A DNA stretch of 64,000 nucleotides from Candidatus Hecatella orcuttiae (GCA_002011035.2 MTLY02000002.1:128001-192000), one strand, 5' to 3'; shown: positions 24,082 through 41,728, counted from the first letter of the stretch. Made by a program: numbers and translations. Notes: generated by a model not told the origin, from the sequence alone.

Positions 24082-26649
24082 GTGTTAAAGATAGGTGGAA
24101 TGACTTGTGCCTCCTGCGCTCAAACCATAGAGAAAGAACTGTCTAAACTTGAGGGTGTAACAGAGGTTGCAGTCAATTTTGCAGCTGAAAAGGCGACAGT
24201 CGAGTACGATCCAGAAAAGATAGATCGGACAAGATTGGAGAAAGCTGTTTCCGATGTAGGATACAGGGTAATCAAAGATGAGATTACGCTGAATATTCAC
24301 GGTATGACTTGCGCTTCCTGCGCCCAAAACATCGAAAAGGCACTGAGCAAAGTTGAGGGGGTATCCAATGCAAGCGTAAACTTTGCGATGGGGAGGGCTG
24401 TAGTCCAGTATGACTCGTCTCAGGTAAGTGTAGCTGAACTTAAGAAGGTTGTAAAAGACTTAGGTTATGAAGCGGTGGAGAGAGTTGAGGAGACTGCGGA
24501 AGATAGGGAAAGAGCAGCGAGAGAGAAGGAGATAAGAACTCAAAAGCACAACCTTATGATCGCTGTAGCCCTAACTGTTCCCCTTGTGTTATTCAGTTTT
24601 CGCGACACCTTCGCTGGCTTCTATGAAAGTATCGGATTGGGTTTTCTTCCCATGTATACTCTACCGGAGAACAAGTACCTCCTTTATCTCATGTTTATTC
24701 TGACCACCATCATAATGGCTGGGCCTGGAAGACAGTTCTTCACCGGAACTTACAAGGGATTAAGGCACGGCACCACGGATATGAACTTGCTCATAGCCAC
24801 AGGAACAGGTGCCGCTTACGTGGTAAGTGTCGTAGCAACTTTCTTTGCGTTAGGCCCGGGGTATAGAGAGGTCTATTACGATACTGCCGGGCTGCTTGTA
24901 TCGTTCATAGTTCTTGGGAGATACTTGGAGGCAAATGCGAAAGGCAGAACCTCTGAGTCTATCCGAAAACTGATGGGTTTGCGGGCTAAGATAGCGAGAG
25001 TGATTAGGGCTGGTGTGGAAAAGGAAATCCCTGCCGAGGATGTGTTGGTTGGAGACCTTGTCATCGTTAGACCGGGTGAAAAAATACCAGTTGATGGAAT
25101 AGTGAGGGAAGGCCATTCGGCTGTAGATGAGTCCATGATAACTGGTGAAAGCCTCCCCGTTGATAAGAAAGTAGGCGACGAAATTATTGGCGCAACAATC
25201 AACAAAACAGGAGTGTTAAAAGTTGAAGCTACAAAAGTAGGAAAGGACACAGCACTATCGCAGATTATCAAATTAGTGGAGGACGCTCAGACCTCAAAGG
25301 CTCCAATTCAGAGGATCGCCGACTACGTGGCAGGGCACTTCATAGTCGCCGTGCACGTACTGGCTTTGGCAGCCTTCTTCTTCTGGTTCTTCGTAGGATA
25401 TCCAACATTCACACCTGGAACTATATTCGAAACAGCGAGTCCTTTCCTCTTCGCGCTCCTCATAGCCATTACAACCCTCGTAATAGCATGTCCATGCGCT
25501 GTCGGGTTGGCCACACCCACCGCTATCATGGTGGGAACAGGGAAAGGCGCCGAAAACGGTATCCTCATCAAAGGGGGAGAGGCATTAGAGAATGCTCATA
25601 AACTAGACACCATCGTATTCGATAAGACAGGCACTCTGACAAAAGGCGAACCGTCCCTAACAGACATAATCGTTGCCAGGGGATTACTGGCGAATCCGGG
25701 TCCGAGTATAAGTCAAATCCCACCGGAAGAAATAGTTGTTCTGGAAAAGTGGAGTGAAGAGAGTGTGTTAAAGTATGCTGCGGTAGCCGAGAAAATGTCT
25801 GAACACCCTTTAGGAAAGGCGATCGTGGAGGGCGCGAAGGAAAAAGGAATAGAGGTAGACGACCCTGAGGCCTTCAACGCTATTCCCGGCCACGGTGTGG
25901 AAGCGAAATACAATGGCAAACTAATTCTTCTCGGAACACGCAAATTGATGAAAGACAATGGCATAGACATTGAGCACTTGGAGGAAGAAATGAAAACATT
26001 GGAAAACGATGGGAAAACAGCGATGATTCTTGCGGTTGATAAAAGACCTGTTGGCCTAGTCGCTGTTGCAGACACCCTCACAGAGTACGCTAAGGAGGCT
26101 GTGGATGAACTTCACAAGATGGGCTTAGAGGTGTTGATGATTACAGGAGATAATGAGCGAACAGCAAAAGCAATCGCTAGGCAAGTGGGCATAAACAGAG
26201 TTCTCGCAGAAGTGCTTCCTAAAGACAAGGCTAACGAGATTAAAAAGCTTCAAAGCGAGGGCAGGAGAGTCGCCATGGTCGGGGATGGAATCAACGATGC
26301 ACCCGCTTTGACCCAATCTGACATCGGCATTGCCATAGGAAGTGGAACTGATGTTGCCATGGAGTCCGGCAAGATCGTGCTAATCAAAAACGATGTTAGA
26401 GACGTTGTCTCCGCAATCAAACTCAGCAGACAAACTATGAAGAAAATTAAACAGAACCTATTCTGGGCTTTTGTCTACAACGGCACGGGACTACCTGTAG
26501 GAGCGGGGGTTCTGTTTCCCTCACTAGGCTTTTTAGTCAGCCCTGCGTTGGCCGCTGCCTTCATGGCTATGAGTTCCGTATCGGTCACTGCAAACTCATT
26601 GTTATTCAAAAGATACAAGCTTAAGAAGGTGCATCATCCGGCTGCTTAA
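24082..26649 (+). CDS. copA: Cu(I)-translocating P1B-type ATPase
   Basis: Two GMTCASC HMA domains, TGES, CPC, DKTGT, SEHP, GDGIND, YN and MxxSS. Confidence 0.96.
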
Positions 26650-29366: not shown

Positions 29367-29909
29367 TCAAGAAGTTTTTGCTTCCAGTTCTTCTAAGATT
29401 TTTTCGAGGTCTTTCTTCCAACGGTCCTCAGTGGCCGTCTGGAAGGAGAAGGTGGCGTTAGGCTGGTAGAACCTGTCTAGGGAGAGAGTTTTCAAATGGG
29501 AGGCGAAATGTTTTAGGGTTGAAAGAAGCTGGGATTGGAAGAAGTATATTCCTCCAAGAAAGACCACTAGGTCGTGGTTTCCCTCCCCCCTCAGCCCCTG
29601 CCAGTTTTCATCCCTCATCCGGTTGACCAAATCCTCTAAGCCCATGCAGGTGAGGGGGACGTCTCCAATTCTTTCCCTGAAAACCCTGAAACATCCGGGG
29701 GAAACCACAACAGGAGAACCCGTCAGCTCAGCCAGCCGGTGCACGAACTTCACCACGTCGACGTCTTCCCCCTTTGCTCCGAGCACGTTGCCTCCCACTA
29801 CTATCAGCGGCCTTTTCGCGTTTCGCAGTAGCTTAGCGGCCATCTCCGGTTTGAGGGTTAAAGCCTGCTCTAAGCCTGGAACCTCAGCCAACTGCCAAGG
29901 AGCCGCCAA
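29367..29909 (-). CDS. cdhB: CO dehydrogenase/ACS complex epsilon subunit
   Basis: AKRPLIVVG, WQGLRGEGNHDLV, LKHFA, DRFYQPNA. Confidence 0.92.
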   Translation of the reverse strand: MAAPWQLAEVPGLEQALTLKPEMAAKLLRNAKRPLIVVGGNVLGAKGEDVDVVKFVHRLAELTGSPVVVSPGCFRVFRERIGDVPLTCMGLEDLVNRMRDENWQGLRGEGNHDLVVFLGGIYFFQSQLLSTLKHFASHLKTLSLDRFYQPNATFSFQTATEDRWKKDLEKILEELEAKTS

Positions 29910-29911
29910 GT

Positions 29912-32242
29912 TTACCGCCTCCTTAACACCAGCCTATCGAGAAGGGTGGTTCCCAGCTCCGGAACAGTCTTAGGCTTCCAGCCTTGACTCCTCAAAACTG
30001 GCAGCAGCTCATCCTTCTCCAACACCGGCAGGTCGGACTCAGTTCTCACGAATAGGTGAAGGTCCTCAGGCAGGGTTCCGTAGAGTTTTCGGTATAAATC
30101 TAGGTAGTTTCTCAGCTTGATGGAGCGGCCTTTGAGGGTGTCGTTGGGCCTCATAACCAGCCGGGCGGCCAGCACGAGGGCTTCCTCCTTCGTCTCAGCC
30201 ACATACCACAGGTGCTCAGGAGCAGGGCCGGTGTACTCTTTTTCCCCGCTTCTGACGTTGTAGGGCATCCATTTTTCATCCACGTCCGGCCGGCCTAGGT
30301 AGGCCCTCCGATGGGCTACACCCTTGGGTCCGAGGATCACGGGGATTCCCAGCCTCGTCGCTCCGGTGGCAATAGCCTCCGCCTTCTGGTTCTGAGTCCC
30401 CCAGACAATGGCCACAGCGCCGATGCGGTTTAGGATGTAGTCGGCTATCTCCTCAAAATTGGCCCTAAGCTTCCGACGTGCGAAGATGTTGGCGATTTTG
30501 ACAGCTGCCCCTAAGATGTGGGCGTTGGAAACGCAGGAGCCGGTGTTGACGATGCCTCCCGCGTCGAAGCTGCCGGGGTATTTCTCGTACAGAGTCCGGC
30601 CTTCCTCGTCCTTGTAGCGGGCGATATCCATGGCGGCGCACCCCGAGGTGACAACGATGTACCGTCTTCGGGCGAATTCCTCCGCCATCTGAGCAACCTC
30701 AATGTGGCCGCGGGGGTAGTTGGAGCACCCGGCAAAGGCAACCACCCCGGGGATTTCACCCATGACAATAGGCCTGCCCACGTTTCTGATTTCCGTGTCC
30801 AGAATCGGCCCCCTTCCAGCCCTGATCTTGTACTTGGATTTTCTGATTTTTTCCATACCAGCCTCTCCGATGAGGGTGAGAACAGGGATCTTCCTCGGGC
30901 ATACGCTGTCACAGCGTCCACATCCCACGCAGAGGTCGTACACTTCGGACAGCTTGGTGAGGTTGCCCTTGGCCGCCGCCAAGACGGCTTCATCCACGGG
31001 AAGGTCGGGAACACAGACCCTCCTGCAAAGGCCGCATCCGGTGCACCGGGAGGCCTCTGCCAAGGCTGCGAGAGGCTTAAGTTCCCTCCTCCTAAGGGGG
31101 GCGATTTTGACAGCGGTGCGGACGGCAACCTCAGCAGCCTTGGAAGGGTCCAGTATGAGGACCCCCATGTTTCTGCCTGAAGCCAAGTCCTCCACAACCG
31201 CGTCCACCGGGTCCTCTGTCCGGTTGGGCAGGCCGCCGCAGACTTGGTCGATGGTGGCGATGACCCGCGTACCAGCCTTGAAGGCTTCTTCTACAATGTC
31301 GACGCGAATACATTCTTGGTCGAGGACTAGAACGTCGGCCATCCCCGTCCTGGCGATGAGCTGCTGTCTTGAAAGGTTTCCGACGATTTTGACCCCCCTG
31401 TTAAACCGGGTTAGGTCGTGGGCTGAACAGCAAACACCGCCCACTTCCACCTTATCTGAGAGGCCGGACCTAGCTAGGTATTCCACCGTCTCCACACCTG
31501 GCGCGGCGTTGTGGCCGACGAAGATGATGACGGGCTTATTCCGGTCCAGCACTCCTAGGCCTATTTCTACGTAAGGTGTTTCAGCGTCGCCTTTCGGATA
31601 TCCTAAGCCGGATATTTGAGCTATGTCCGCAACTTCCAAAGCAAGGTTATCCAGCATGCCGGCGTGGAGGGCTTTAGATTCGAAGTCTAGGTAATTCTGC
31701 TCCTGCCCTGTGAGGACGGAGGAGAGAAGCTGGGTGATCTGGTCGCCTATGTAGTCCAGCACCCCCTCCAAGTCGCCCAGCGTCTTAGGCTTTACTCCGG
31801 TGATAAGCCTCGTCAAGGGAGCCTCAATATCTATCTCCGAACCCAAATCTATGGGGTGGCTTCTCCCCAGCTTCTTGACCAAGTAGTCCACCAGATGTTT
31901 GGCGTGGGTTGTGTGGGCTGATGCGCCTACCACGCACTCGAGGAGAATGTGTCTTCCCTGCTGGGTTCGGATGTCGATGCCGCAGGCTCCTTTCCGCCCT
32001 TTGGCGAGGTCGCATTTACCGTAGCCGCAGAGGCAGCATCGGTCGCAGAGAGGCGAATAGAAGGGCTGATATTTTTTCAGCAGCTTCCAATCCCACTCCC
32101 GGAGGGAGGTTAGGGTGGGGAAGGGCGTCGGCCCTGGGGGTTCCTCCCAGTCCTCAGTAATCTGCCCGACTAGGATTTCCAATCCCTTTATTTTGGCGAG
32201 GGCTGAGTTCAGCTCTTTAACCACTATCTTGGAGTTTTTCAC
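29912..32242 (-). CDS. cdhA: Archaeal Ni-CO dehydrogenase alpha subunit
   Basis: CCLCGYGKCDL..GACG, GHN, CCS, two 4Fe-4S ferredoxin motifs, GCSN, SGCA, GSCVSN, QKA, RPND. Confidence 0.95.
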   Translation of the reverse strand: MKNSKIVVKELNSALAKIKGLEILVGQITEDWEEPPGPTPFPTLTSLREWDWKLLKKYQPFYSPLCDRCCLCGYGKCDLAKGRKGACGIDIRTQQGRHILLECVVGASAHTTHAKHLVDYLVKKLGRSHPIDLGSEIDIEAPLTRLITGVKPKTLGDLEGVLDYIGDQITQLLSSVLTGQEQNYLDFESKALHAGMLDNLALEVADIAQISGLGYPKGDAETPYVEIGLGVLDRNKPVIIFVGHNAAPGVETVEYLARSGLSDKVEVGGVCCSAHDLTRFNRGVKIVGNLSRQQLIARTGMADVLVLDQECIRVDIVEEAFKAGTRVIATIDQVCGGLPNRTEDPVDAVVEDLASGRNMGVLILDPSKAAEVAVRTAVKIAPLRRRELKPLAALAEASRCTGCGLCRRVCVPDLPVDEAVLAAAKGNLTKLSEVYDLCVGCGRCDSVCPRKIPVLTLIGEAGMEKIRKSKYKIRAGRGPILDTEIRNVGRPIVMGEIPGVVAFAGCSNYPRGHIEVAQMAEEFARRRYIVVTSGCAAMDIARYKDEEGRTLYEKYPGSFDAGGIVNTGSCVSNAHILGAAVKIANIFARRKLRANFEEIADYILNRIGAVAIVWGTQNQKAEAIATGATRLGIPVILGPKGVAHRRAYLGRPDVDEKWMPYNVRSGEKEYTGPAPEHLWYVAETKEEALVLAARLVMRPNDTLKGRSIKLRNYLDLYRKLYGTLPEDLHLFVRTESDLPVLEKDELLPVLRSQGWKPKTVPELGTTLLDRLVLRRR

Positions 32243-32311
32243 CGACCATCACCTACAATTTTTAGGGGGGTATCGAATTCCGCGGGGATTTTCTCATGAG
32301 CATTCTCTCCC

Positions 32312-32527
32312 TTACTTTGCGGCTTCCTTCAATTCTTCCACGAATTTTTGCACGTCCAACCCAAACCTTACGCAGGCTTGTTCTATGGTAGTGGAGCCGG
32401 CCATGGTTTTCCTCATCACCGGGTCCTTCAGGGGCGTGAAGCCCTTTTTCACGAAGACATCCAGAAGCTTCGGATATTTCTCCAAAACCTCTAACACCGT
32501 CATGTCTTTGCTTATTTCTATTTCCAT
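32312..32527 (-). CDS. DUF1858-domain protein
   Basis: ISKDMTVLEVLEKYP...F...TIEQAC..G.D..KFVEEL. Confidence 0.8.
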   Translation of the reverse strand: MEIEISKDMTVLEVLEKYPKLLDVFVKKGFTPLKDPVMRKTMAGSTTIEQACVRFGLDVQKFVEELKEAAK

Positions 32528-32545
32528 GCTAAACTTTCACCTCCA

Positions 32546-32869
32546 TCAACCCCTAGACGGCTTCCTAGGGGAACATTTTTTGGGGCAGTAGGTTTGAACA
32601 TGGCAGTCGACAAGCTTGAAGAGAGGCTCTAAGGTCTCCCTGTTCAGGAAGTAGACCCGTTCCTTCCACCTTCGTTCCGGAAGGACGAAGCGACATCGAA
32701 CAAGGGCTTGGAGGTTATGGGAGATCATGCTCTGACTCTGCCCCAAAGCCTTCGAGATCTGGGTGACGTTTCTGGGGCCCTCCCTCAAAAGCTCCACCAC
32801 CGCCAGCCTAGTGGGGTTGGAGAGGGCTGCGAAGAAGAAAGGACATGCCTCGCTGAGGCCGTACTTCAT
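32546..32869 (-). CDS. ArsR/SmtB-family regulator
   Basis: FFAALSNPTRL, QSMISHNL; C-terminal Cys/His residues. Confidence 0.88.
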   Translation of the reverse strand: MKYGLSEACPFFFAALSNPTRLAVVELLREGPRNVTQISKALGQSQSMISHNLQALVRCRFVLPERRWKERVYFLNRETLEPLFKLVDCHVQTYCPKKCSPRKPSRG

Positions 32870-32978
32870 TCAGCTTCCCCGACGGAGAATATTGGTATGA
32901 AAAATGTTTCATATCATATTATTTAAACATATCACAACTATCTAAAACTCAGCCTCGTCCAAGACAGCCCCTCACGGG

Positions 32979-33674
32979 TCAACTCTTTTCCTTCACATGC
33001 CTTTCCTCGGACTCCATAAACTTTTCCAGCAGAGAAGCCACGCTGGAATAATAGCCCAAAGAAGATTCTTTGCGAAGTTTACTGCAAAACTTCGGAATCC
33101 ACCAAGCCAAGTGGTCTTTGAAAAACTTCAACCCAGCCTCCCGGCATACAGCCGCCTGGTCCTTCCACCTCTTATCCAGTGCGTAGACTTCTTTGAGCAG
33201 AAGCAACCCCATGAATTCTAGCTCCGTGCAGATGAAGTCAGGCCGCTCTTTCACGGAAAGCTCAACTTTAAAGGCTCGGTAAAACCCTGAAACATCCGCC
33301 AGTTCTTTAGCTTTTATGAAGGAATGCTGACAGTAATCCGTCTCGTAGAAAGAACATTTGAGGGGAACCAAGCAGAGCCTGTTGTAGGCTGCTTCCATCT
33401 CTGCGACGGAAGACTCATCCATCTGCTCCATGAAAACCTCTAGGGCCCGGCTGAGCTCCTCCGACCCAAGCAACCCAGCGGCCTCCGAAGCCCTCCTGCG
33501 GACCTCTTCACCGCAGAGCTCTCGAATTTCACGGCGGGGGTAGGCTAAGGCCTGCGAAATCAACCTGTACAGATAGCTCCGAGCGTAGAGAACCTCTCTC
33601 TCCTCTTGCTCGGGCAGGGCGGAGGGTTGACGGCTCTCAGGGTTCGTTGAATCGGTGGATTTTGTATTTTTCAT
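32979..33674 (-). CDS. TorD/DmsD-family molybdoenzyme maturation chaperone
   Basis: LADVSGFYRAF, ERPDFICTELEFM, FFKDHL.WW. Confidence 0.9.
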   Translation of the reverse strand: MKNTKSTDSTNPESRQPSALPEQEEREVLYARSYLYRLISQALAYPRREIRELCGEEVRRRASEAAGLLGSEELSRALEVFMEQMDESSVAEMEAAYNRLCLVPLKCSFYETDYCQHSFIKAKELADVSGFYRAFKVELSVKERPDFICTELEFMGLLLLKEVYALDKRWKDQAAVCREAGLKFFKDHLAWWIPKFCSKLRKESSLGYYSSVASLLEKFMESEERHVKEKS

Positions 33675-34752
33675 CGTAAAACGGCCTTATGTAGGTTGGT
33701 TCTTCCAAGGAAACCCTTATGACCTCGTTTCCCCCGGAATCATAGGCTACAACTTCCTTGGAGGTAGGTTTAAACTTGGAAATTATTCTCTGCGTCGTCC
33801 CGAAAAGACGAAGCACGGCGAAGAGGGTTGAGTCTAGGTTGGTCCGTTTCCTTATAGCCGCCTCAACCCCCGGGCCGAACATTTGGGTTAGGAAGTCCCT
33901 AGGAACCCAGCGGGGCGGTATATAGTAGACGTTAGGCTCCAGTCCGAACTGCGGATAGAGGGGAAGCGCCACCTTCTCCACATGCACCAGGTAGTCGATG
34001 GGGTTGCTGGGGTCAACCTTTTCCGGGGGGTTCAGAAAGCCTTGAAGCCTGATCTTCCCTACGCAAGTGGCAACGCAGCGGGGGATGGTTCCCTCCTCCA
34101 CCCTCGGATAGCAGGCTATGCATTTTTCACTCCGCCCCGTGTACTCCCTGTATAGAGATTTTTTGTAGGGACAGGCTTCAACGCATTTTTTGAAGCCCCC
34201 GCATCGGTTTTGATCTATGAGGACGATGCCGTCTTCCTCCCGCTTGTAGATGGCCTTCCGAGGACAGGAAGCCAAACAGGCGGGGTAGGTGCAGTGGTTG
34301 CAGATTCTTTGGAGGTAGAACATCCAGTTTTGATGGACGGGAAGCTCAACGGTGGAAGACCAGCCGGTGGGAGTGTCCTCGTAAATGTTAGGAAACCTCC
34401 ACTCAGGCTCCGAGGGCATGAAGCCTAAGGCAATAGCACCCTCCGGCCTCGCTTCAAAGATGGTCTTACCGGTGTACACGCCGTTCTCCCAGCTCTGGGT
34501 TCCCAGCATCTCCAAGATCCGGTGGTCCCAGAACTGGGGGTAGCCGCCGTAGGGTTTTGTTTCCACGTTGTTCCACCACATGTACTCCTGCCCTTTGTCG
34601 AAGGTCCATGTGGACTTGCAGGACATGGTGCACGTCTGGCAGCCGATGCAGCGGTTGATGTCGAAGACTGCGGCGAACTGCTTTTTAGGCCTTTTACCTT
34701 CGTAGAGGTATTCCATCTCCCTTCCAATCTGCCAGTTGTAGACTTTAGCCAC
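33637..34752 (-). CDS. NXR/periplasmic NAR-type beta (Fe-S) subunit, NxrB/NarH-like
   Basis: VYNWQIGR start, CIGCQTC..SC, GQEYMWWNNVETKPYGGYP, CNHCTYPACLASCP, CVEACPY, CIACYPR. Confidence 0.92.
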   Translation of the reverse strand: MAKVYNWQIGREMEYLYEGKRPKKQFAAVFDINRCIGCQTCTMSCKSTWTFDKGQEYMWWNNVETKPYGGYPQFWDHRILEMLGTQSWENGVYTGKTIFEARPEGAIALGFMPSEPEWRFPNIYEDTPTGWSSTVELPVHQNWMFYLQRICNHCTYPACLASCPRKAIYKREEDGIVLIDQNRCGGFKKCVEACPYKKSLYREYTGRSEKCIACYPRVEEGTIPRCVATCVGKIRLQGFLNPPEKVDPSNPIDYLVHVEKVALPLYPQFGLEPNVYYIPPRWVPRDFLTQMFGPGVEAAIRKRTNLDSTLFAVLRLFGTTQRIISKFKPTSKEVVAYDSGGNEVIRVSLEEPTYIRPFYDEKYKIHRFNEP

Positions 34753-37700
34753 GGATGAATCCTCCTCGCAGATACTTCTTCATCGCCTCGCTTTCATTAC
34801 CGGGAGTGAAGCCTGTTTGAGCAGGCTCCCATGTGTCCGCTCCGTCTAGGCTGCCGTTCTCGGCGAAGGAAATCTTCACCAAGGACTCTTTCGGAGCGCC
34901 GGTGACGGAGCAGACGTCGACCAGATAGCCTTTGCCTATTTTATGGGTGAAGTAGTCCTTCCGCACTAGGCTGTCGGTCATCTGGGTGGGGTTCAGCCAT
35001 GCGCGGACAACACTCTGCTGGGAGCCGTATCGGAGGCTGGGAGGATAACCTGTGTCCGTGACAGCCAACCCGTCGGCTTTCGTCTCATGAGCCTCCACAG
35101 ACCTGTGGGTGGCTCCGTAGATTCCGTGGTAGATGATGGTGAAACCCCGAGGGAGGGAGGGATTGTATCGGGCTCTGATTTTCAGCCGGGAAACCTTGTA
35201 GAAGGGGTCCCCTTTGTTCCAGCCTCGGTAGGGACGGTCTCGGGGGTTGCCGTCCACGTAGACGTAGTCGCCGTCTTTGATGCCCCGCTCCTTAGCGTCC
35301 TCAGGGTTGATGTCTAGTTCTTCCTCCCCCACCCAAGGGGTGCGCTTGTCCATGCGGTAGGGGTCGCCGAAGTTGCTGGCCCAGATGACGTTCCAGTCCA
35401 CGGTGCTCCAAGAAGAGTGAACCCTATGCCTAGGCTTGGGGGTTATGCAGATGAGGTCTAAGCCGTCTTTGTCCAGCAGCGGATTCCTCGTCTTAAGCAT
35501 CTCCTCCGTGGTCAGCTTAACATGCCTGACGGTCATTTCCTCCACATTCAGCGACTCCCAGTCGACTCCGTGGTCTTTCGGCTCGATGGCCCTGAAGCCC
35601 TTCGGGGCGACGATGGCGCTGGGCAGGTAGGGGGTTGACTCCATGGGCTCCCGGTGGACTATGAGGTTTTCCCCTTGGTCTAAGAACTCGTCTTCCTCCC
35701 GGTAGAACTCCAAGCGGCCTGTCCTGGTGTAGAAGGGTTTACTTTCTTGAACTTGCTCCCATCCGGGAATCCGAGGGTAGGTTCTAAAGAGGGCGAGGAA
35801 TCCCTTTTCCGCAGAGAGCATTTCGTAGATGTTGTAACCTCGGGTGGTGGTGCCGCAGTCCAGAATTCTTTGGAGGTATACCTCTACTTTCCCTTCTTTC
35901 ACAAATTTCCAGTGGAGAACAAACCGCTCATCGCCGGTTATTTTGGCGAGGGCGGAGGCCACGCCTGCGTAGACTTCTATATCATGCTTGGTGTCATGAA
36001 CAGAGTTCATCCCTTTGGGGAACAGTTGGATGAAGGGGTTGGTGCAGGAAGCTGTCATGTCCGGGTAGGATAATTCCGTCCAAGCCTCAACAGGGAACAC
36101 CACATCCGCATACTCGCAGTTCATGTTCCATTCGAAATCCTGCGCTATGTAGAGCTCCTGCTTTGGCAGAACGTTTTTGATGGTGTCGTAGTGCCATTTG
36201 CACACACCCAGCAGGTTAGCGTTGACAGCCCAAACCAGCTTGGTGGGGCTGGGCATGTGCGTCTTGCCTGTCAGGACAACCCTGCCAAACTTCGGGCTGT
36301 TTACTATCAGAGGACTGTCTCCGTAGTTCCAGTAGTGGATGGATTCGAATTTTATGTAGGCCTTCTTCTTAACGTCGCGGCCGTCGACGTCGGGGGATAA
36401 TGTCTGATTGAAGGGGTCCTCCACCACGTAGCAGGGGAGATTCAGGATGGGGGCCTTGTAGTTTCCCGCGTAGCTTCCCACGTTTCCCCCAGGTTTACCG
36501 ATGTTCCCCGTTAAGCTGGCGACGAGGAAGTAGGCGCGGTTGATGAGATCGTTGTGGAAATACATGTTCATACCCATGCCGCAGAGGAAACCCACCGACC
36601 CCGCTGAGGCTATGTCCCGAGCCAACCGGATGAGCATATCCTTGGGGACGTTGGTGATCTTTTCCACGTTCTCCGGTGTGTACTCCTCCGTCAGCTCCTT
36701 GTAAAGGCGGAAAATGGTCTTCACGCCGACGGTTTCTCCGCCCTTCACCGTCACCGTGCCTTTCCAGTCTAATTCTAGGTCGTCGACGCTCAGCCCTAAG
36801 GCCTGAAGCTGCTGGGCGAGATGCTCCCCCACAGCCGTGCGGCTGACCCCCACAAGCCGGCCGTCTTTGCTTCTCATCACCGCGTAGGTTTTCAGCTCCT
36901 CAGGCATTTCTTGGACAGGCTTGCCGTCGGCGTAGACGAAGGTTTCTCCGGGGTCCAAGGAGAGAGGCTTAGGGTGAGGCTCATCCTGCCGGAGTAGTTT
37001 CTTGGTGTCCTCCCTGACCAGAAGAGGCATATCGGTGAATTTTTTCACGAAGTCCTCCTTGTAGAGGGCTTCCCGGATTATCACGTGAGCTAGGCCGAGC
37101 ATGAGGGCTGTGTCGGTGCCGGGGCGGATGCCAATCCAGTAGTCGGCTTTTGTGGCGGTGGGGCTGTATTCGGGAGCTATGACCACTATCTTTTTCTTCT
37201 TATCGATGCGGGACTGCCACCAAGAGGCATCGGCCATCTTGTTTTGGATCAGGTTCAACCCTGAGATGACGAGCATGTCAGAGTTCCAGAAGTCGTTGAA
37301 CTCCTGGTCGAAGGTCTGAACCCCGTGAACCATGGGGTGCCCCGGAGGCAGGTCGGTGTGCCAGGCGTAGTTGTCCCAAGTCCTAGCTCCCACCGATCCC
37401 TCAGGGCCTTTACCCCTGAGGTAGTTGTCCAGCAGAGCCAGCATGTTGGCAAACCGGTACATGCCAGCCAGCCTAGTGGCTCCTAAGAAGGCCATTCCAC
37501 CTCGGAGCTTAAACGTCCTAACTCCCGCCATCTCGCCTGAAGGGTCTAGGGAAGCTTCAATCATCTCCTCCGGGTAACCCTGCCTCCTGAGGAGCTCTGC
37601 TCCCGAGGGGCCGCTGTAGGTTTGGGCGATGTTCACCATGGCTTTAGCCACCAATTCAAAGGCTTCATCCCAAGAGACCCTCACCCAGTCGTCGACGCCT

Positions 37701-38209
37701 CTTCGGAAATATTCCTTCGGAGGCCTGCCATTCTCATCCCGGGGGAAGCCTGCGTTAACCCAGTTCAGCCAGCCCTTTCTGACTAGGGGGTATTTCACTC
37801 TAAAAGGGCTGTAAACTCGCTTCATGAAGGTCAGCCCCTTTAGGCAGCCTCTCGGATGCCATGTAGGCGTAGCCTTGTTGCCGTAGATGTCCTGATACTC
37901 GGCGACATCGTAGGCTTGCTCGATCCTGACTATCACCCCGTTTCGGACGAAGGCTCTCAGCCGGCAGTTGTGAGTGTCGTTGGGCGCGCAGACGAAGGTG
38001 AAGGATGAGTCATACCGGTATTGGTCCCTGTAGAGTTTTTCCCAGTCTCTCTCCGGGTAGGCGGCTAGAGGGTTGTCTACCTTTACTGGTTTTAGGAAGC
38101 GGAACATCAAATCCGCGGTGGTGAGTTGGGAGGCGACGTAGAAGCTGCCTACAGCCGCAGCGGTCACAGCCGCCATTTTCATGAAATCTCTTCTACTGGA
38201 ATTTTTCAT
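34745..38209 (-). CDS. Tat-exported type II DMSO-reductase-family molybdoenzyme, NxrA/NarG-like alpha subunit
   Basis: SRRDFMK Tat signal, VDNPL..YP.R.WE..YRDQY.YD, FS0 motif CAPNDTHNC...PRGCLKG, WHTDLPPGHP Mo-ligand Asp region. Confidence 0.93.
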   Translation of the reverse strand: MKNSSRRDFMKMAAVTAAAVGSFYVASQLTTADLMFRFLKPVKVDNPLAAYPERDWEKLYRDQYRYDSSFTFVCAPNDTHNCRLRAFVRNGVIVRIEQAYDVAEYQDIYGNKATPTWHPRGCLKGLTFMKRVYSPFRVKYPLVRKGWLNWVNAGFPRDENGRPPKEYFRRGVDDWVRVSWDEAFELVAKAMVNIAQTYSGPSGAELLRRQGYPEEMIEASLDPSGEMAGVRTFKLRGGMAFLGATRLAGMYRFANMLALLDNYLRGKGPEGSVGARTWDNYAWHTDLPPGHPMVHGVQTFDQEFNDFWNSDMLVISGLNLIQNKMADASWWQSRIDKKKKIVVIAPEYSPTATKADYWIGIRPGTDTALMLGLAHVIIREALYKEDFVKKFTDMPLLVREDTKKLLRQDEPHPKPLSLDPGETFVYADGKPVQEMPEELKTYAVMRSKDGRLVGVSRTAVGEHLAQQLQALGLSVDDLELDWKGTVTVKGGETVGVKTIFRLYKELTEEYTPENVEKITNVPKDMLIRLARDIASAGSVGFLCGMGMNMYFHNDLINRAYFLVASLTGNIGKPGGNVGSYAGNYKAPILNLPCYVVEDPFNQTLSPDVDGRDVKKKAYIKFESIHYWNYGDSPLIVNSPKFGRVVLTGKTHMPSPTKLVWAVNANLLGVCKWHYDTIKNVLPKQELYIAQDFEWNMNCEYADVVFPVEAWTELSYPDMTASCTNPFIQLFPKGMNSVHDTKHDIEVYAGVASALAKITGDERFVLHWKFVKEGKVEVYLQRILDCGTTTRGYNIYEMLSAEKGFLALFRTYPRIPGWEQVQESKPFYTRTGRLEFYREEDEFLDQGENLIVHREPMESTPYLPSAIVAPKGFRAIEPKDHGVDWESLNVEEMTVRHVKLTTEEMLKTRNPLLDKDGLDLICITPKPRHRVHSSWSTVDWNVIWASNFGDPYRMDKRTPWVGEEELDINPEDAKERGIKDGDYVYVDGNPRDRPYRGWNKGDPFYKVSRLKIRARYNPSLPRGFTIIYHGIYGATHRSVEAHETKADGLAVTDTGYPPSLRYGSQQSVVRAWLNPTQMTDSLVRKDYFTHKIGKGYLVDVCSVTGAPKESLVKISFAENGSLDGADTWEPAQTGFTPGNESEAMKKYLRGGFIRG

Positions 38210-38688
38210 GACATTTCACTCTCCATTCTGATGTATTCTGTTTCCTTCGCAGGGAAACCTTGGGTGGTTTTGTCGCTCATATGCTCCTTACTGCAAGCAA
38301 ACCAGCAGCCTTCTTCAGGAGGCTTGTCCACGTAAAACAGGGCATCTTTTCTGCACCCGGGGTGGAAGCATTTCACCCTAGATCGAGCCGCCCTTTTCCT
38401 CCGAGCGATTTCCACCATCTCGTCGGCTATTCGCCTTTTCTCCCCGAACAGGAACATGGTGAAAATCGAATGCTCATCTGGGAGACTGACAACTCGAAGG
38501 GAAAGAGGCTCCTTAAACTTCAGAGGCTCTTCCGCAGGTTTTAGGATGAAACTGTATCCTCCGGAACGGTAAAGAGGCTCCGTTTCCCCCCGGGGGATGA
38601 GGAAGTCGGGAAACGCGTAGAGGAGGTACTTTTTCTCCTTCAGCATTATTTCTCTCCTGTAGAGCTTGCCCTCCACCACTCCCTTCAC
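38206..38688 (-). CDS. Hypothetical protein with C-terminal Cys/His metal-binding motif
   Basis: CFHPGC...CWFACSKEH; overlaps the alpha-subunit start (translational coupling). Confidence 0.6.
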   Translation of the reverse strand: MKGVVEGKLYRREIMLKEKKYLLYAFPDFLIPRGETEPLYRSGGYSFILKPAEEPLKFKEPLSLRVVSLPDEHSIFTMFLFGEKRRIADEMVEIARRKRAARSRVKCFHPGCRKDALFYVDKPPEEGCWFACSKEHMSDKTTQGFPAKETEYIRMESEMS

Positions 38689-39090
38689 CTACTCCACGAC
38701 AGTTATTTTCCCCACCATGGACTGATGGCCTTCGCTGCAGAAGACACTGCAACGGAAGGTGAAAGTGCCTGTTTCCTCTGGGACAAATTCTATGACTGCC
38801 TTATGCCCGGGGGCAATGGGCCCGCTGTCTAACCCTAAATCTGGAACATGAAATCCGTGGGTTACGTCGGCGCTTGTGATGATCAGCTTCGCCGGCACAC
38901 CTTTCCGGAGGGTTATCTCACTCGGAGACCAGCCGCCGTTTTCCGCCGCCCAGCCTGTAATCCAGACGACTTGAACCTCTTCATCCAATTTTTGGGCATC
39001 AAGCCAGAGGTCATAGCCGTAGATCGACGCAGAGGGCACCAGCAAAACGGCTACGAGAAGTGCTAAGGCTGCCCATTCTGTCTGGTTCAC
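38689..39090 (-). CDS. Membrane-anchored CuA cupredoxin (COX subunit II-like domain)
   Basis: N-terminal TM helix; DVTHGF...CSVFCSEGHQSM CuA ligand set. Confidence 0.88.
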   Translation of the reverse strand: MNQTEWAALALLVAVLLVPSASIYGYDLWLDAQKLDEEVQVVWITGWAAENGGWSPSEITLRKGVPAKLIITSADVTHGFHVPDLGLDSGPIAPGHKAVIEFVPEETGTFTFRCSVFCSEGHQSMVGKITVVE

Positions 39091-39097
39091 CGTTTTT

Positions 39098-40558
39098 TCA
39101 CCCCATGAAAAGCCATAGGAAGATCATGCTGACGAAGGTCAGAAATACTACTTGAGGGAGAAAGGCCTTCAACGCTGCCTTGCCTTCTGGAAAGTTCTGC
39201 TTGGCGAGGCGGTAGGAGTATTTTATGGAGTAGGCAAGACCCACGGCTAAGACTATGCTTTGCAGGTAGGGAATAACCGCGGGAATCAAGGGGGTCCAAG
39301 GAACATAGAGACCGCTGAAAACATTCCAACCCAAACCAACCGGGTCTAGGAGGGCGTTGACTATATAGGACCAGTTGACCAGCAGAAGGGGGATGCTGAA
39401 GGCTATCCAAGCCATGAGGGCTAGGGGAATCAGCTCGTAGGAGAAGTCTATGAACAGCTTTTTAAGGGGCACAGACCTGACCCCGGAAGCCAGCTTAGAA
39501 GCGCCTGTAAACAGGAAGAAAACGGAGGGTGTGACCGCCAACGATAGGCCCCAAAAGATTCCCACGTAGGGAAGGAACCCTCCGACGCCTGTCAGCGCCC
39601 AACCGTAGGGGGGTGCCCAGAAAACATTGGACCAGTCTTTCAACACACCCCAAGGACCTTGCATTACCAGGATGTAGAGCCCAGCCAACGTCAGCATGAT
39701 GAAAGATTTCCAAGCCTCATCTAAGGCTCTGCCCGTTTTCGCCAGAATATCCCCTCCAAACGAGCGTAGGTTGAGGGCTAGGTTGTTGTAGGGGCAGGTC
39801 TTGATGCATTCGAAGCAGAGGCCGCAGTAGTTGTTCCTCTCCAAGCCTCCTGGGTAGATTATCCAAGGACATCCGTAGCCGTTGTCGTTTCCCCTCACGC
39901 ATTCCTTGGTCATGTGGTTGCGGCAGAGGGTTTTGTCCTTAGGCCTCAGCTCTAAGGCGGAGAACATGGAAAACAACCCCAAGAAGCCGCCCACAGGGCA
40001 GATGAACCTACAGAAAACCCTCCTCGAATATATCAACACCAGAAAAACGGGTACTACAAAAAGAATTAGCAACACTATGGCTGTCACAACTGGCCTGGTT
40101 ACCAAGAGGGCGCTGAAGGTGGCGATGGCTAGGAAGCCTAGGTTCTGAAGCCAGATGTTGTTCAACTTGGAAGGCCAAGGCTTCCTGAGGCTTAGGTACT
40201 TGAACGCGCTACGCTTTTTCACCAGCGCCCGTCTTTCCAGCCACTCTCCGAAGGCGGGGAGGGGGCACATGGTGCACCAGATCCGGGAGAGGAGGGGAAC
40301 CATGAGGACGATGAGGGCGAACCACCAGAGGATCCAGACGAAGACGATGGAGATGTTCCTGTTCCCCACGGGGGAACCGAAGAATCCTGAAAGGATGATA
40401 ACCCAGAAAACGAAAAGGTTAACCATCATGGCAGCGTACTGGAAGGCTCTGTGCTTCAGCAGCCTGTTGATGATGCCTATTTGGAGAAGGTCAAACTTGC
40501 CTCTGTGGAGGATGAGGCTGGAGAAGAAATCTCTAACATGCCACCGAGTTGCCGCCAA
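39098..40558 (-). CDS. Polytopic 4Fe-4S membrane protein (NapH/NosR-like)
   Basis: Two CxxxCP motifs (WCTMCP variant, FCRFICP), C..C..GCP and CGLCFECIKTCP; many TM helices. Confidence 0.88.
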   Translation of the reverse strand: MAATRWHVRDFFSSLILHRGKFDLLQIGIINRLLKHRAFQYAAMMVNLFVFWVIILSGFFGSPVGNRNISIVFVWILWWFALIVLMVPLLSRIWCTMCPLPAFGEWLERRALVKKRSAFKYLSLRKPWPSKLNNIWLQNLGFLAIATFSALLVTRPVVTAIVLLILFVVPVFLVLIYSRRVFCRFICPVGGFLGLFSMFSALELRPKDKTLCRNHMTKECVRGNDNGYGCPWIIYPGGLERNNYCGLCFECIKTCPYNNLALNLRSFGGDILAKTGRALDEAWKSFIMLTLAGLYILVMQGPWGVLKDWSNVFWAPPYGWALTGVGGFLPYVGIFWGLSLAVTPSVFFLFTGASKLASGVRSVPLKKLFIDFSYELIPLALMAWIAFSIPLLLVNWSYIVNALLDPVGLGWNVFSGLYVPWTPLIPAVIPYLQSIVLAVGLAYSIKYSYRLAKQNFPEGKAALKAFLPQVVFLTFVSMIFLWLFMG

Positions 40559-40560
40559 TC

Positions 40561-41019
40561 TCAGTCGCCCCTACGCCAAACGTAGGCCGTCGCAGCTAGA
40601 ACAACCCCCACCAAGCCGAAGGCCGCTCCTAGGAAGGCGATGTTCACTCCGCTGCGCAACACTATGAACTCACCTACCATGAAAGGGTGGAGGGCCCCGC
40701 AAGTTTCGCTGCACCTGATCTTGAACTTTCCAGGGGTATCAGCCACAACAGTCACAGTCTGAGTCTCCCCCGGAATTATCCGCACATCCACATCGTAGCC
40801 GTCGATGTAGAAACCGTGAGTCACATCCACGGTTTCAAGCACAAAGACCACCGTGTCGCCCTGGTTTACCACCACCCTACCGGGCTCGTAGGCAAACTGG
40901 CGGGCGGTGATGTGAACGGTTACTACTTCCCCTCCTGAAGCCGAAGGCGCGTAGAATAAGGCGGCGAAAACGATGAGTAGAGTGAACCATGCTCCGGCGA
41001 GAAGCTGGCGTTTCAACAA
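40561..41019 (-). CDS. Second membrane-anchored CuA cupredoxin
   Basis: DVTHGF...CSETCGALHPFM; N- and C-terminal TM helices; TTG start after GGAGGT. Confidence 0.88.
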   Translation of the reverse strand: MLKRQLLAGAWFTLLIVFAALFYAPSASGGEVVTVHITARQFAYEPGRVVVNQGDTVVFVLETVDVTHGFYIDGYDVDVRIIPGETQTVTVVADTPGKFKIRCSETCGALHPFMVGEFIVLRSGVNIAFLGAAFGLVGVVLAATAYVWRRGD

Positions 41020-41070
41020 GGGAACCTCCCGACATAGACTGACTGCAGGTCTTTTTACGGTGGGAGATTT

Positions 41071-41199
41071 ATAACAATTGTGATATAAATAATTTACGAT
41101 GTATATAGACAGATTTACACCCAATTCATAACAGCAACATCCAACAATCCTTTCGAAAAAAAGCCAAGAATTATATAGCAAAACCATAACAATAGTGAT
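41071..41199. promoter_or_regulatory. Two imperfect palindromic operator-like sites in a divergent promoter
   Basis: ATAACAATTGTGAT (41071-41084) and ATAACAATAGTGAT (41186-41199) next to TATA-like tracts. Confidence 0.5.
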
Positions 41200-41237
41200 G
41201 TTGATCAACCCCAGCCGGTTAAAACGGTGGGAAAAAC

Positions 41238-41639
41238 ATGATTCCCGTCTGCGAACTTTCCATGAGATACGTCATCCCTACCATAAGGGCAGCTCTCACG
41301 GGAAGACTGAGGGAGAAATACCGTCTGAAGCAGGAGGACATATCTAGGCTACTGCGAATAAGACAATCGGCGGTAAGCCAGTATCTCACTGGAAAAAGAG
41401 GCGTTCGGCTGAGGATCCAACGCGACCGGGAGGTCCAAGTCCTCCTAGACAGCATAGCCGGGAGGCTGAAGAGGAGAAATCTCAGTAGCTCTGAGCTGAT
41501 GAGAGAGCTCTGCCGAGCTTGCACGCTCATCCGTTCGAAAAAAATGGTATGCGGGCTACATAAAAGCCTAGATGAAGATGTCCCACCTGACTGCGCTCTT
41601 TGCCTAAGCGGCAAGAGCCTTTGCAACGTGAAAATCTAA
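41238..41639 (+). CDS. HTH transcriptional regulator (COG2522-like) with Cys-rich tail
   Basis: PVCE...VIPTIRA, Q..I...L...QSAVSQYL.GKRG, C..C...C.LH...C..C. Confidence 0.85.
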   Translation: MIPVCELSMRYVIPTIRAALTGRLREKYRLKQEDISRLLRIRQSAVSQYLTGKRGVRLRIQRDREVQVLLDSIAGRLKRRNLSSSELMRELCRACTLIRSKKMVCGLHKSLDEDVPPDCALCLSGKSLCNVKI

Positions 41640-41728
41640 AAGGGCGCCATTTTCTCGGGGAAAGGGAGAGAAGATTACTCTGGTTGTTGATAAGCCATCA
41701 GGGCTGAGGGTTTGGGATTCTTCGAAAG

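Follow-up and report, generated by a model that had tools for sequence, protein, structure and literature searches.

Within a 64,000-nucleotide stretch of the genome of Candidatus Hecatella orcuttiae (GCA_002011035.2, MTLY02000002.1:128001-192000; hereafter the window), seven abutting or overlapping genes form one tight operon on the minus strand (32979-41019; Table 1), in which an outward-facing molybdoenzyme of the NxrAB/NarGH type without a gamma subunit is joined to a four-gene module encoding two predicted CuA cupredoxins, a NapH-like Fe-S membrane protein and a small Cys/His protein. We consider the chances about even that this module, which appears to pre-exist in archaea, serves to anchor the enzyme to the membrane and to admit electrons to it. 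The genes follow one another, 5' to 3', in the order CuA-1, NapH-like protein, CuA-2, Cys/His protein, alpha, beta and delta, and the successive junctions of +2, +7, 0, -4, -8 and -38 nt leave no room for separate promoters. The last module gene and alpha thus share a 4-nt overlap, and delta begins 38 nt before beta ends, in the position that the gamma gene has in relatives. A preliminary description of this DNA had placed abutting genes for a CuA protein, a polytopic 4Fe-4S protein, another CuA protein and a small Cys/His protein directly upstream of alpha, which the gene calls and junctions bear out. It had also noted that the operon has no oxidase subunit I, NarI, haem-b gamma subunit or CxxCH cytochrome, and family and motif searches of the operon likewise gave no match to COX1, NarI or EB_dh and no protein with CxxCH; a Pfam search detected no NapG-like or NapA-like gene within it either.

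Table 1. Genes of the operon and its flanks; positions are counted from the first nucleotide of the window.
Gene	Position	Strand	Features
CuA-1	40561-41019	-	152 aa from TTG at 41019; COX2 PF00116, Cupredoxin_1
NapH-like polytopic Fe-S protein	39098-40558	-	486 aa; Fer4_5 PF12801
CuA-2	38689-39090	-	133 aa; COX2 32.3 bits
Small Cys/His protein	38206-38688	-	160 aa; no Pfam/NCBIfam family
Alpha, NxrA/NarG type	34745-38209	-	1154 aa; TAT signal, molybdopterin domains
Beta, NxrB/NarH type	33637-34752	-	Fer4_11, type II DMSOR beta model
Delta, NarJ/TorD-type assembly chaperone	32979-33674	-	Nitrate_red_del 60.9 bits
ArsR-family regulator	32546-32869	-	HTH_5 48.7 bits; 109 nt downstream of operon
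Small HTH protein, Cys-rich C-terminus	41238-41639	+	Divergent; HTH_3/HTH_31 weak, below cut-off

The alpha subunit matches nitrite oxidoreductase subunit A (PDB 7b04_B) over its full length (1133 bits, residues 6-1153) and is 60-68% identical to its nearest database relatives, while its score against the generic NCBIfam subfamily model (345 bits) stays below the cut-off of 985. It is predicted to belong to the periplasmic NxrA/NarG clade and to be a Mo-bisPGD enzyme exported by TAT; in this clade the direction, nitrate or nitrite, is not readable from sequence. As its 15 unique departures from near-invariant columns fall within the range of 1-36 found in 21 homologues, alpha is not degenerate. 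The beta subunit, which scores 266.8 bits with the type II DMSOR beta model and is 59-69% identical to its homologues, has 3 such departures compared to 0-8 in 21 homologues. Both subunits look intact and under normal constraint.

The haem-b gamma subunit, by contrast, is missing from more than the operon. Pfam searches of the whole genome, which is 97.1% complete, yielded no EB_dh or NarI gene, and the best hit of a custom HMM built from 13 gamma subunits had an E value of only 2.6. Among the closest alpha relatives (60-63% identical), all 13 informative metagenomic loci, that is, those reaching past beta, have the order alpha-beta-EB_dh gamma-delta. Gamma is similarly kept between beta and delta in a second genome of the same class, and in three module-bearing archaea it lies beside alpha-beta. 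The loss is thus particular to this operon, and an enzyme whose relatives keep gamma, but for which neither operon nor genome provides one, needs another redox partner. Compared to NxrABC (PDB 7b04) and the type II DMSO reductase enzymes whose gamma is a soluble haem-b subunit of the EbdC, NxrC or Orf7 type, the alpha, beta and delta types and the TAT export are the same, and gamma is missing.

Both cupredoxins passed the COX2 (PF00116) cut-off of 22, CuA-1 with 39.5 and CuA-2 with 32.3 bits; CuA-1 also exceeded that for Cupredoxin_1, and among NCBIfam models it matches the NosZ CuA domains best. The maximal open reading frame of CuA-1 (215 aa, to 41208, with the CuA motif at residue 166) is probably too long, and the TTG start chosen here is preceded at 5 nt by an RBS-like GGAGG. 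Hydrophobic segments at both ends, an N-terminal signal or TM helix and a C-terminal TM helix, suggest that CuA-1 is anchored in the membrane with its cupredoxin domain facing outward between the two; CuA-2 has one N-terminal TM helix. A scan for ligand motifs located C-x3-C-x3-H-x2-M together with the upstream His in both proteins, so that the full ligand sets already described for them proved complete. The motif is not a chance occurrence, since of the 2031 filtered ORFs of the genome only four have it, all of them from the two copies of the module, and in CuA-2 the residues H78, C114, C118, H122 and M125 are invariant in all 7 aligned homologues. Both are predicted to be of the CuA type known from subunit II of haem-copper oxidases and the C-terminal domain of NosZ. 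A bacterial CuA-2 homologue (locus L072) carries a C-terminal cytochrome c domain (Cytochrom_C in addition to COX2), which marks CuA-2 as the outward-facing electron-transfer end.

The third membrane component scores 37.9 bits with Fer4_5 (PF12801; cut-off 22), and remains far below the cut-offs of the NapH/MauN models (TIGR02163, 29.9 vs 213.05 bits; NF007013, 26.5 vs 234). It might thus work as a relative of NapH while lying outside the NapH/MauN family as defined. About nine TM helices are predicted, the last five of which form a conserved C-terminal extension. A ferredoxin-type domain with a Cys cluster lies between helices 4 and 5, and there are two Cys-x2/3-Cys-Pro motifs. Invariant in 15 sequences are C95, C98, P99, C183, C187 and P188 as well as C212, C220, C230, C245, C248, C251 and C255, the last seven being the only invariant cysteines of the ferredoxin domain. 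NapH itself, according to Brondijk et al., reportedly spans the membrane with four helices and carries two Cys-x(2-3)-Cys-Pro motifs along with a pair of cytoplasmic ferredoxin-type clusters. With the membrane Fe-S quinol dehydrogenase modules NapGH, NosGH and NosR, the present protein would have in common four N-terminal helices, two Cys-x-x(-x)-Cys-Pro motifs, a ferredoxin-type domain predicted to be cytoplasmic and an association with periplasmic reductases of N-oxides; NosH and NosR act for NosZ, itself a CuA enzyme. In contrast to these, the present protein has five extra helices, the module comprises neither a NapG-like periplasmic ferredoxin nor an FMN domain, and the partners at the outer face are CuA cupredoxins. 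An AF2 model (pLDDT 71.6, pTM 0.76) displays nine long helices; Foldseek returned no solved relative at E<=0.001, and the best VIA match (Z 8.1) is a generic helical one. In the second genomic copy, and in 5 of 77 loci where a NapH-like ORF was called, a CuA-1 homologue forms the N-terminal part of the NapH-like protein, and from this fusion the Fe-S domain is predicted to be cytoplasmic and CuA to lie outside. No membrane-spanning cofactor is evident, and the membrane part has no invariant His among the 15 sequences.

The small Cys/His protein has neither a TM helix nor a signal peptide, and is predicted to be cytoplasmic. It contains a C-x4-C ... C-x3-H site, at which C107, C112 and H136 are invariant and C132 nearly so among its homologues. 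It matched no Pfam or NCBIfam family, has only 13 representatives among 1.84 billion proteins, and its AF2 model (pLDDT 87) had no fold match. In four archaeal loci (L006, L007, L008 and L009) homologues come after CuA-2 with no molybdoenzyme adjoining, indicating that the gene belongs to the module rather than to the molybdoenzyme; it appears to be the fourth gene of the archaeal form.

The module is a self-contained unit, present in 473 species genomes, and is widespread yet uncharacterised. Eighty related loci were kept for neighbourhood analysis, and in 79 of them a CuA cupredoxin adjoins the NapH-like gene. Within the flanks examined, an NxrA-type alpha gene lies beside the module in none of the 80, and neither does COX1; conversely, no NapH-like gene was found near the closest alpha relatives (0 of 20 loci). 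A second copy in the same genome is far from any molybdoenzyme. The initial proposal of a conduit in place of NxrC/NarI is partly supported: these subunits were not found in the genome, but the module, being autonomous, is not dedicated to the molybdoenzyme. NosZ, a CuA-dependent terminal reductase, adjoins it in 2 of the 80 loci (L032 and L021), which fits an electron-supply unit recruited by different reductases, and of five archaeal genomes with the module that were searched, four encode an NxrA-type alpha. The module of Chloroflexota and other bacteria is of the same family (46-51% identity over the full length, same order CuA - NapH-like - CuA), adding a cytochrome c to CuA-2 and having DUF1573, PCYCGC and two-component genes as neighbours, where the archaeal form adds the Cys/His protein; literature searches on the module turned up no printed description of this orphan bacterial CuA-polyferredoxin form.

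Among the cases compared, the module is joined to NxrAB/NarGH only here and in Methanoperedens, whose similar NapH and subunit II genes beside narGH had been correctly named as a partial precedent. Table 1 of PMC4683180 lists NarG, NarH, NarJ, Orf7, HCO II, NapH (9 TM) and HCO II for that cluster, all genes of the nar operon are given as transcribed (RPKM 630-1396; PMC4683180, PMC5690323), and the same authors call the triad proteins potential membrane anchors of NarGH; the non-canonical Nar is also treated in PMC13079737. As far as these accounts go, and with homology of the triads judged from published descriptions rather than by sequence comparison, the NarG, NarH, NarJ, HCO II, 9-TM NapH and HCO II kinds are likewise all in one cluster here, alpha is TAT-exported in both, and CO dehydrogenase genes are close by (cooS there, cdhAB here). 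The module lies upstream of alpha here and downstream there, the Cys/His protein is an additional fourth gene here, the host belongs to a different archaeal class, and Methanoperedens is listed with the haem subunit Orf7, whereas neither Orf7 nor EB_dh occurs in the present genome. The operon is thus a new, gamma-less variant of a Methanoperedens-type kind that is known but uncharacterised.

In the proposed path, electrons from a carrier in the membrane, or from a donor in the cytoplasm by way of the cytoplasmic Fe-S domain, would enter the NapH-like protein and move on to the two CuA centres tethered to the membrane at its outer face; from CuA-2 they would reach the Fe-S chain of beta and finally the molybdenum site, where nitrate would be reduced. 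We infer the mutual binding of the proteins, the contact between CuA and beta, the source of the electrons and the direction in which they flow, and with quinol as donor the route would run from the NapH-like protein through CuA to beta. The joint unit is favoured by the tight packing, the absence of gamma, the intact alpha and beta, the conserved CuA ligands, the Methanoperedens triad, the NosZ neighbours, the NxrA-type alpha in four of five archaeal genomes and the fusion of CuA-2 to cytochrome c. Against it stands that the module mostly occurs without the enzyme, both in the loci of its own kind and in those of the alpha relatives, with the second copy lying apart. Methanoperedens, as tabulated, keeps Orf7, so the module need not replace the haem subunit. 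Moreover, the Fe-S domain is predicted to be cytoplasmic and CuA to lie outside, with no evident cofactor between them, and no known quinone pathway was found. That the CuA centres dock directly on beta and replace haem b, which would make this the first copper-wired molybdenum (bis-PGD) enzyme, is a tentative and rather doubtful extension. If this extension is true, CuA - NapH-like - CuA would be a new kind of haem-free membrane oxidoreductase, a complex-III-like feeder that supplies different terminal reductases in archaea and Chloroflexota, NxrAB in the present case and NosZ in others.

The organism is not haem-poor. Its genome encodes a full Ccm system (CcmABCEFH), a cytochrome b and three multihaem cytochromes c (10, 17 and 7 haems), so that the contrast once drawn with a cytochrome-rich Methanoperedens has to be abandoned, and the cytochromes c could serve beta instead. 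These cytochromes lend some weight to a reading in which the two gene sets are merely co-regulated neighbours, the module carrying out its own general transfer between membrane or cytoplasm and carriers at the outer face and NxrAB being fed by c-type cytochromes or another carrier. The freedom of the module from NxrA in all 80 kept loci and the second copy point the same way, but the 4-nt overlap ties the last module gene to alpha, the loss of gamma, kept in 13 of 13 relatives, coincides with the module's arrival, and the same adjacency recurs independently in Methanoperedens as published. We regard this reading as improbable, though with an appreciable chance of being right. A role in copper handling, with the NapH-like protein as CcoG-type cupric reductase or maturation factor and the cupredoxins as its substrates or as copper stores, is unlikely. 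The Fer4_5 family also includes CcoG, a Cu-ATPase is encoded within the window (24082-26649), and bacterial loci contain PCYCGC (29 loci), DUF305 (10 loci; a second DUF305-matching cluster in 4), Met-rich, rhodanese and DsbD_TM neighbours; in L008 the module is adjoined by a Penicillinase_R-type repressor together with an M48/M56 peptidase, and a peptidase of this kind is also present in L078. However, the fusion to cytochrome c and the binuclear CuA ligand sets, which are complete and conserved, are marks of electron transfer, those neighbours can equally be read as CuA assembly factors, and archaeal loci have none of these copper genes beside the module except extra blue-copper proteins.

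A gNOR-like oxidase subunit I, accompanied by a subunit II of its own, is also encoded in the genome, 110 kb away, and bears on two further readings. Electrons could flow in reverse, nitrite being oxidised and the CuA proteins carrying electrons from beta to a terminal reductase such as this oxidase. Among solved structures alpha is closest to nitrite oxidoreductase, and the CuA potential of about +0.25 V, although below that of the nitrate/nitrite couple (+0.42 V), is in keeping with the potentials of donors to oxidases. A genome that looks anaerobic and has two CODH (CdhAB) copies speaks against this direction, as do a non-His residue at one CuB ligand position of the oxidase and its copper-free subunit II; gNOR-type enzymes have been described with such a subunit and are proposed to use quinol. 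We give the reverse direction little credence. It is still far less probable that the CuA proteins are the detached subunit II of the distant oxidase, as might be supposed from the lack of every CuA ligand in its own. Since the oxidase fits the gNOR description, in which the copper-free subunit is by design, it seems not to account for the CuA proteins, and the module occurs with NosZ or alone, with COX1 in none of its 80 loci; a subunit I elsewhere in the genome, raised earlier as a possible explanation, thus exists without providing one. Regarding quinone synthesis, which the preliminary description had put forward for checking, no recognised pathway was found in the genome: MqnA/D were not detected, MenA was not found over cut-off, and a MenA-like prenyltransferase stayed under all cut-offs.

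At the flanks of the operon, the ArsR-family gene on the same strand is possibly part of the unit, and the divergent HTH protein is a candidate regulator. The 218-nt intergenic region before CuA-1 contains AT-rich, TATA-like stretches at about 41050-41100.

On the minus strand, positions 41019 to 32979 of the window are taken up by seven consecutive reading frames in head-to-tail order. A CuA-type cupredoxin (CuA-1), a polytopic NapH-like Fe-S protein, a second cupredoxin (CuA-2) and a small Cys/His protein, here called the module, are followed by the alpha and beta subunits and the delta chaperone of an NxrA/NarG-type molybdoenzyme (NxrABD), with successive intergenic distances of +2, +7, 0, -4, -8 and -38 nt. 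Reading frames, junctions and Pfam/NCBIfam assignments bear out the gene order, the abutting or overlapping genes and the families given in the preliminary description. Its claim of a full CuA ligand set in both cupredoxins also holds, as both pass the COX2 cut-off, the signature C-x3-C-x3-H-x2-M is found in only 4 of 2031 open reading frames genome-wide, all of them within the module and its paralogue, and the CuA ligands are invariant in seven of seven CuA-2 homologues. The NapH-like protein scores far below the NapH family cut-off (29.9 vs 213 bits). The TTG start of CuA-1 at 41019 is preceded by GGAGG and, farther upstream, by an AT-rich stretch ahead of a divergent gene, whose 133-aa product has a weak HTH_3-type match and seven C-terminal cysteines and is a candidate for regulating the operon in response to redox state or metals. 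A promoter and terminator scan of 32300-41700 gave the same counts as shuffled sequences, its consensus being bacterial and so uninformative for an archaeon.

Positions of the features discussed (window positions unless a contig, C, or an examined locus, L, is named; G003 is another genome of the same class)
Feature	Position	Strand	Remark
CuA-1	40561-41019	-	over COX2 cut-off (Pfam)
Polytopic Fe-S (NapH-like) protein, 486 aa	39098-40558	-	Fer4_5 domain model only
CuA-2	38689-39090	-	over COX2 cut-off (Pfam)
Cys/His protein, 160 aa	38206-38688	-	no Pfam/NCBIfam match
Molybdopterin alpha subunit, 1154 aa	34745-38209	-	twin-arginine signal; Pfam/NCBIfam
Fe-S beta subunit, 371 aa	33637-34752	-	Pfam/NCBIfam
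Delta, NarJ/TorD-type chaperone	32979-33674	-	Pfam/NCBIfam
Divergent HTH_3-type gene	41238-41639	+	
cdhA-cdhB	29367-32242	-	stand-alone pair
P1B-type ATPase (CopA-like)	24082-26649	+	two HMA domains
Oxidase subunit I	C2:54998-56587		
Oxidase subunits I and II	C2:54521-56587 = L098:4521-6584		
Respiratory island	C2:84001-99000 (L097)		
Second cdhAB pair	C3:372350-375190		
Second module copy	C3:473086-475463		
Second module copy region	C3:473086-475993 = L096:3086-5990		
Atypical module	G003:C8:12088-16467 (L100)		
Region with DUF7347/RDD regulator	L006:4376-8378; L007:7967-9500; L010:570-2088		
Additional cupredoxins	L006; L008:8939-9493		
Peptidase and repressor	L008:7509-8875		
M48/M56-kind peptidase	L078:5880-6800		
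Module with EB_dh protein	L078:7565-13238		

The alpha subunit aligns over its full length (1133 bits) with subunit A of the nitrite oxidoreductase in PDB entry 7b04, which we take to be the Kuenenia enzyme, and its nearest database relatives (60-68% identity), like those of beta, are named from Chloroflexota, Phycisphaerae and Nitrospinota. On this sequence evidence the enzyme is assigned to the outward-facing NxrAB/NarGH clade, an assignment from which the direction of the reaction is not readable. In the prevailing view, type II molybdoenzymes (Nar, Nxr, Ebd, Ser, Clr, Pcr) pass electrons via a haem-b subunit, the gamma subunit. The closest alpha relatives (60-63% identity) come from 20 metagenomic loci, none of which has a NapH-like gene; 13 of these loci extend past beta, and all 13 show the order alpha, beta, EB_dh-type gamma, delta. 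Of 400 further genomes sampled from this class, only one (G060) has an alpha orthologue, followed there by beta, a gamma of the EB_dh type, with PKD domains and a membrane anchor, and delta; the module is absent from that genome. A gamma-like gene also follows alpha and beta in three module-bearing archaeal genomes. In the window, the 38-nt overlap of beta and delta lies exactly at the place which gamma occupies in the relatives.

Throughout the source genome, which is 97.1% complete in 3 contigs, neither Pfam EB_dh nor NarI gave a match, and the best hits to gamma were at E 2.6 with a custom profile of 13 gammas and at E 0.24 with tblastn. The custom profile is narrow, because it detected nothing at 1e-3 in the best 80 module loci, even though L078 has a 407-aa protein that matches Pfam EB_dh. 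A remnant enzyme, pseudogenised after the loss of gamma, was considered and rejected, since alpha and beta diverge no more than their homologues do: unique departures from near-invariant columns number 15 in alpha (range 1-36) and 3 in beta (range 0-8), with 21 homologues each. As gamma is absent from the genome and kept by the relatives, and as alpha and beta are not decaying, the earlier wording that the module stands 'in place of NxrC' is fair as a description of gene content.

The CuA proteins might instead belong to another enzyme of the genome. NosZ was rejected in this role, as the genome's matches to the NosZ model are confined to its CuA part, the catalytic propeller being absent. A haem-copper oxidase subunit I, the other owner named in the preliminary description, does exist 110 kb from the operon, but it has its own subunit II, which is devoid of any CuA ligand, so that the CuA proteins are not accounted for. 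This subunit I is only distantly related to those of ba3-type oxidases and has Leu-Asp at what we presume to be the position of the first CuB histidine. The putative nitric oxide reductase gNOR is described as having aspartate where an active-site histidine would be, as lacking copper in its subunit II and, by proposal, as depending on quinol (PMC11214002); judged by its sequence the oxidase fits this description. A gNOR-like oxidase is unusual for this archaeal class.

The host is not poor in haem, against the contrast with Methanoperedens drawn in the preliminary description. The region C2:84-98 kb holds a full set for cytochrome c maturation (CcmA, B, C, E, F and H), together with one cytochrome b and three cytochromes c, of 10, 17 and 7 CxxCH motifs. 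It forms a respiratory island some 30-45 kb ahead of the window, in which the cytochrome b, of the b561 type, lies beside the 17-haem cytochrome, the 7-haem protein has cytochrome c552/NrfA-like parts and the 10-haem protein a weakly NrfH-like start. Searches of the genome for the quinone pathway (PF02621, TIGR00751) did not find MqnA/D, its sole MenA-like prenyltransferase scores under all cut-offs, and NirK was not found. Within the window, the CopA-like copper-exporting ATPase, which lies where G+C is lower (0.39-0.47 over 18-30 kb), might provide the CuA proteins with copper.

The NapH-like protein is, by sequence similarity, a member of a large and well conserved family, with 889 proteins at E<=0.001 among 8000 scored and 46-64% identity over nearly full length among the 120 matches listed. 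Scanning a single genome for each species yielded 473 module loci. Among the best 80 of these, 79 have a CuA-type cupredoxin, and in all 77 with a called NapH-like reading frame the CuA motif is present in a flanking frame or, in five cases, fused; none of the 80 has an NxrA-type alpha or COX1. The gene for nosZ adjoins the module in two, L032 (Caldarchaeum, with nosL and nosD) and L021, and at L008 an unrelated Psr/NrfD-type enzyme lies 5 kb away. Bacterial modules typically have, on the downstream side, a CuA protein of about 310-380 aa, which in the single case checked (L072) is a CuA-cytochrome c fusion; their neighbours include a HisKA_3 kinase (46 loci), a LuxR regulator (38 loci) and DUF1573, PCYCGC, DUF305, rhodanese and DsbD_TM proteins. 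A quick maximum-likelihood tree places the NapH-like copy of the window with those of L006-L010 in a six-sequence archaeal clade (SH-aLRT 99). In L006-L009 a Cys/His homologue directly follows CuA-2 with no molybdoenzyme next to it, while L010 ends too early to judge. The Cys/His family comprises 13 representatives among 1.84 billion proteins and shares an invariant C-x4-C ... (C)-x3-H site.

The source genome contains the module a second time, with 42% identity in the NapH-like part and no molybdoenzyme nearby. This copy consists of a 657-aa CuA-1/NapH-like fusion, a 135-aa CuA-2 paralogue and a final 197-aa membrane-anchored protein with repeated His/Glu-rich stretches that belongs to no family; it has an ArsR-type gene and a 284-aa unknown on its upstream side and, downstream, an H+-pyrophosphatase on the opposite strand. 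Given this copy and a spread mostly without molybdoenzymes, the module is an autonomous unit, and the operon is therefore a mosaic of an archaeal-type module and an NxrABD set with bacterial nearest relatives. The NapH-like protein recurs in just one of 400 other genomes of the class, G003, in an atypical form (L100): downstream lies a 174-aa protein that has a linker rich in proline and glutamate but lacks the canonical CuA motif, and upstream no CuA gene was seen.

Fusions and hydrophobic segments suggest a topology in which the cupredoxin domains face outward on single anchors, whereas the ferredoxin-type domain and two Cys-Cys-Pro motifs of the NapH-like protein would lie on the cytoplasmic side; its conserved loops G-x-P-x-G-N and D-P-x-G-x-G-W ... 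W-x-P are placed on the outer face. By analogy with NapGH and NosGH/NosR, the NapH-like protein would draw electrons from a carrier in the membrane and reduce an outer-face partner, NapG in Nap and here CuA-1 and then CuA-2, which would in turn reduce the Fe-S chain of beta. Alternatively, the NapH-like protein might receive electrons from cytoplasmic reduced ferredoxin. The cdhAB pair, coding for CO dehydrogenase alpha and epsilon, lies 0.7 kb away from the operon on its downstream side; its two proteins are 55% and 40% identical to their paralogues in a second pair. With CuA at about +0.25 V and nitrate/nitrite at +0.42 V, nitrate reduction would be downhill. In the model as a whole, that the module feeds NxrAB, binding, donor and direction are inferred, and we consider it about equally likely to hold or to fail. 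The interpretation first offered, a copper-based wiring of the enzyme, is supported in part: the replacement of gamma stands in gene content, but the module is autonomous and the host not poor in haem, and the path from CuA to beta stays a model. Foldseek retrieved no PDB match to the NapH-like model at E<=0.001, the top VIA-wide Z of 8.1 being a generic helical match, and none to the Cys/His model, and an Atlas search gave nothing beyond a 0.80 hit; these results provide no leads and are not evidence for new folds.

A comparable arrangement, mentioned in the preliminary description, is indeed on record for Methanoperedens. Table 1 of PMC4683180 lists a triad HCO II - NapH (9 TM) - HCO II with transcript levels in the nar operon, and PMC5690323 terms the triad "potential membrane anchors" of a non-canonical NarGH. 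Two cooS genes also accompany the nar cluster, an association that the authors regard as functional coupling (PMC13079737); CO dehydrogenase genes are thus close by in both systems, cooS there and cdhAB here. In contrast to Methanoperedens Nar, which has Orf7, the present operon is without it, has the module upstream, carries the Cys/His gene and comes from another archaeal class. No biochemical study of the triad was found in the literature searched. The operon is a gamma-less version of a known, uncharacterised arrangement. A natural enzyme minus the haem-b subunit and plus two CuA proteins would offer a clean test of whether HCO II/NapH feed the Methanoperedens-type Nar, a question since 2015, and the cleanest natural case for testing CuA feed to a molybdoenzyme. 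It also provides a functional handle on a module of hundreds of species to which no role is assigned, and would bring nitrate respiration, with partners of the gNOR-like and multihaem kinds, to an archaeal class usually read as fermenters and acetogens.

Some further neighbours were observed at the archaeal module loci. A membrane-bound regulator (DUF7347 winged helix plus RDD domain) precedes the module in L006, L007 and L010, additional plastocyanin/azurin-type or cupredoxin proteins lie ahead of it in L006 and L008, and a preceding 199-aa protein of L010 matches no family yet has the CuA motif. At L078 (Thermoplasmatota) the module is followed by proteins of the EB_dh and PKD kinds as well as an ArsR regulator, an Fe-S protein and a membrane protein of the NrfD type, with no alpha subunit in the examined DNA. 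At L008 the module adjoins a BlaR1-like peptidase (M48/M56) and a repressor of the Penicillinase_R (BlaI/CopY) type, and a peptidase of the M48/M56 kind lies beside it at L078; these neighbours may represent a copper-responsive switch.
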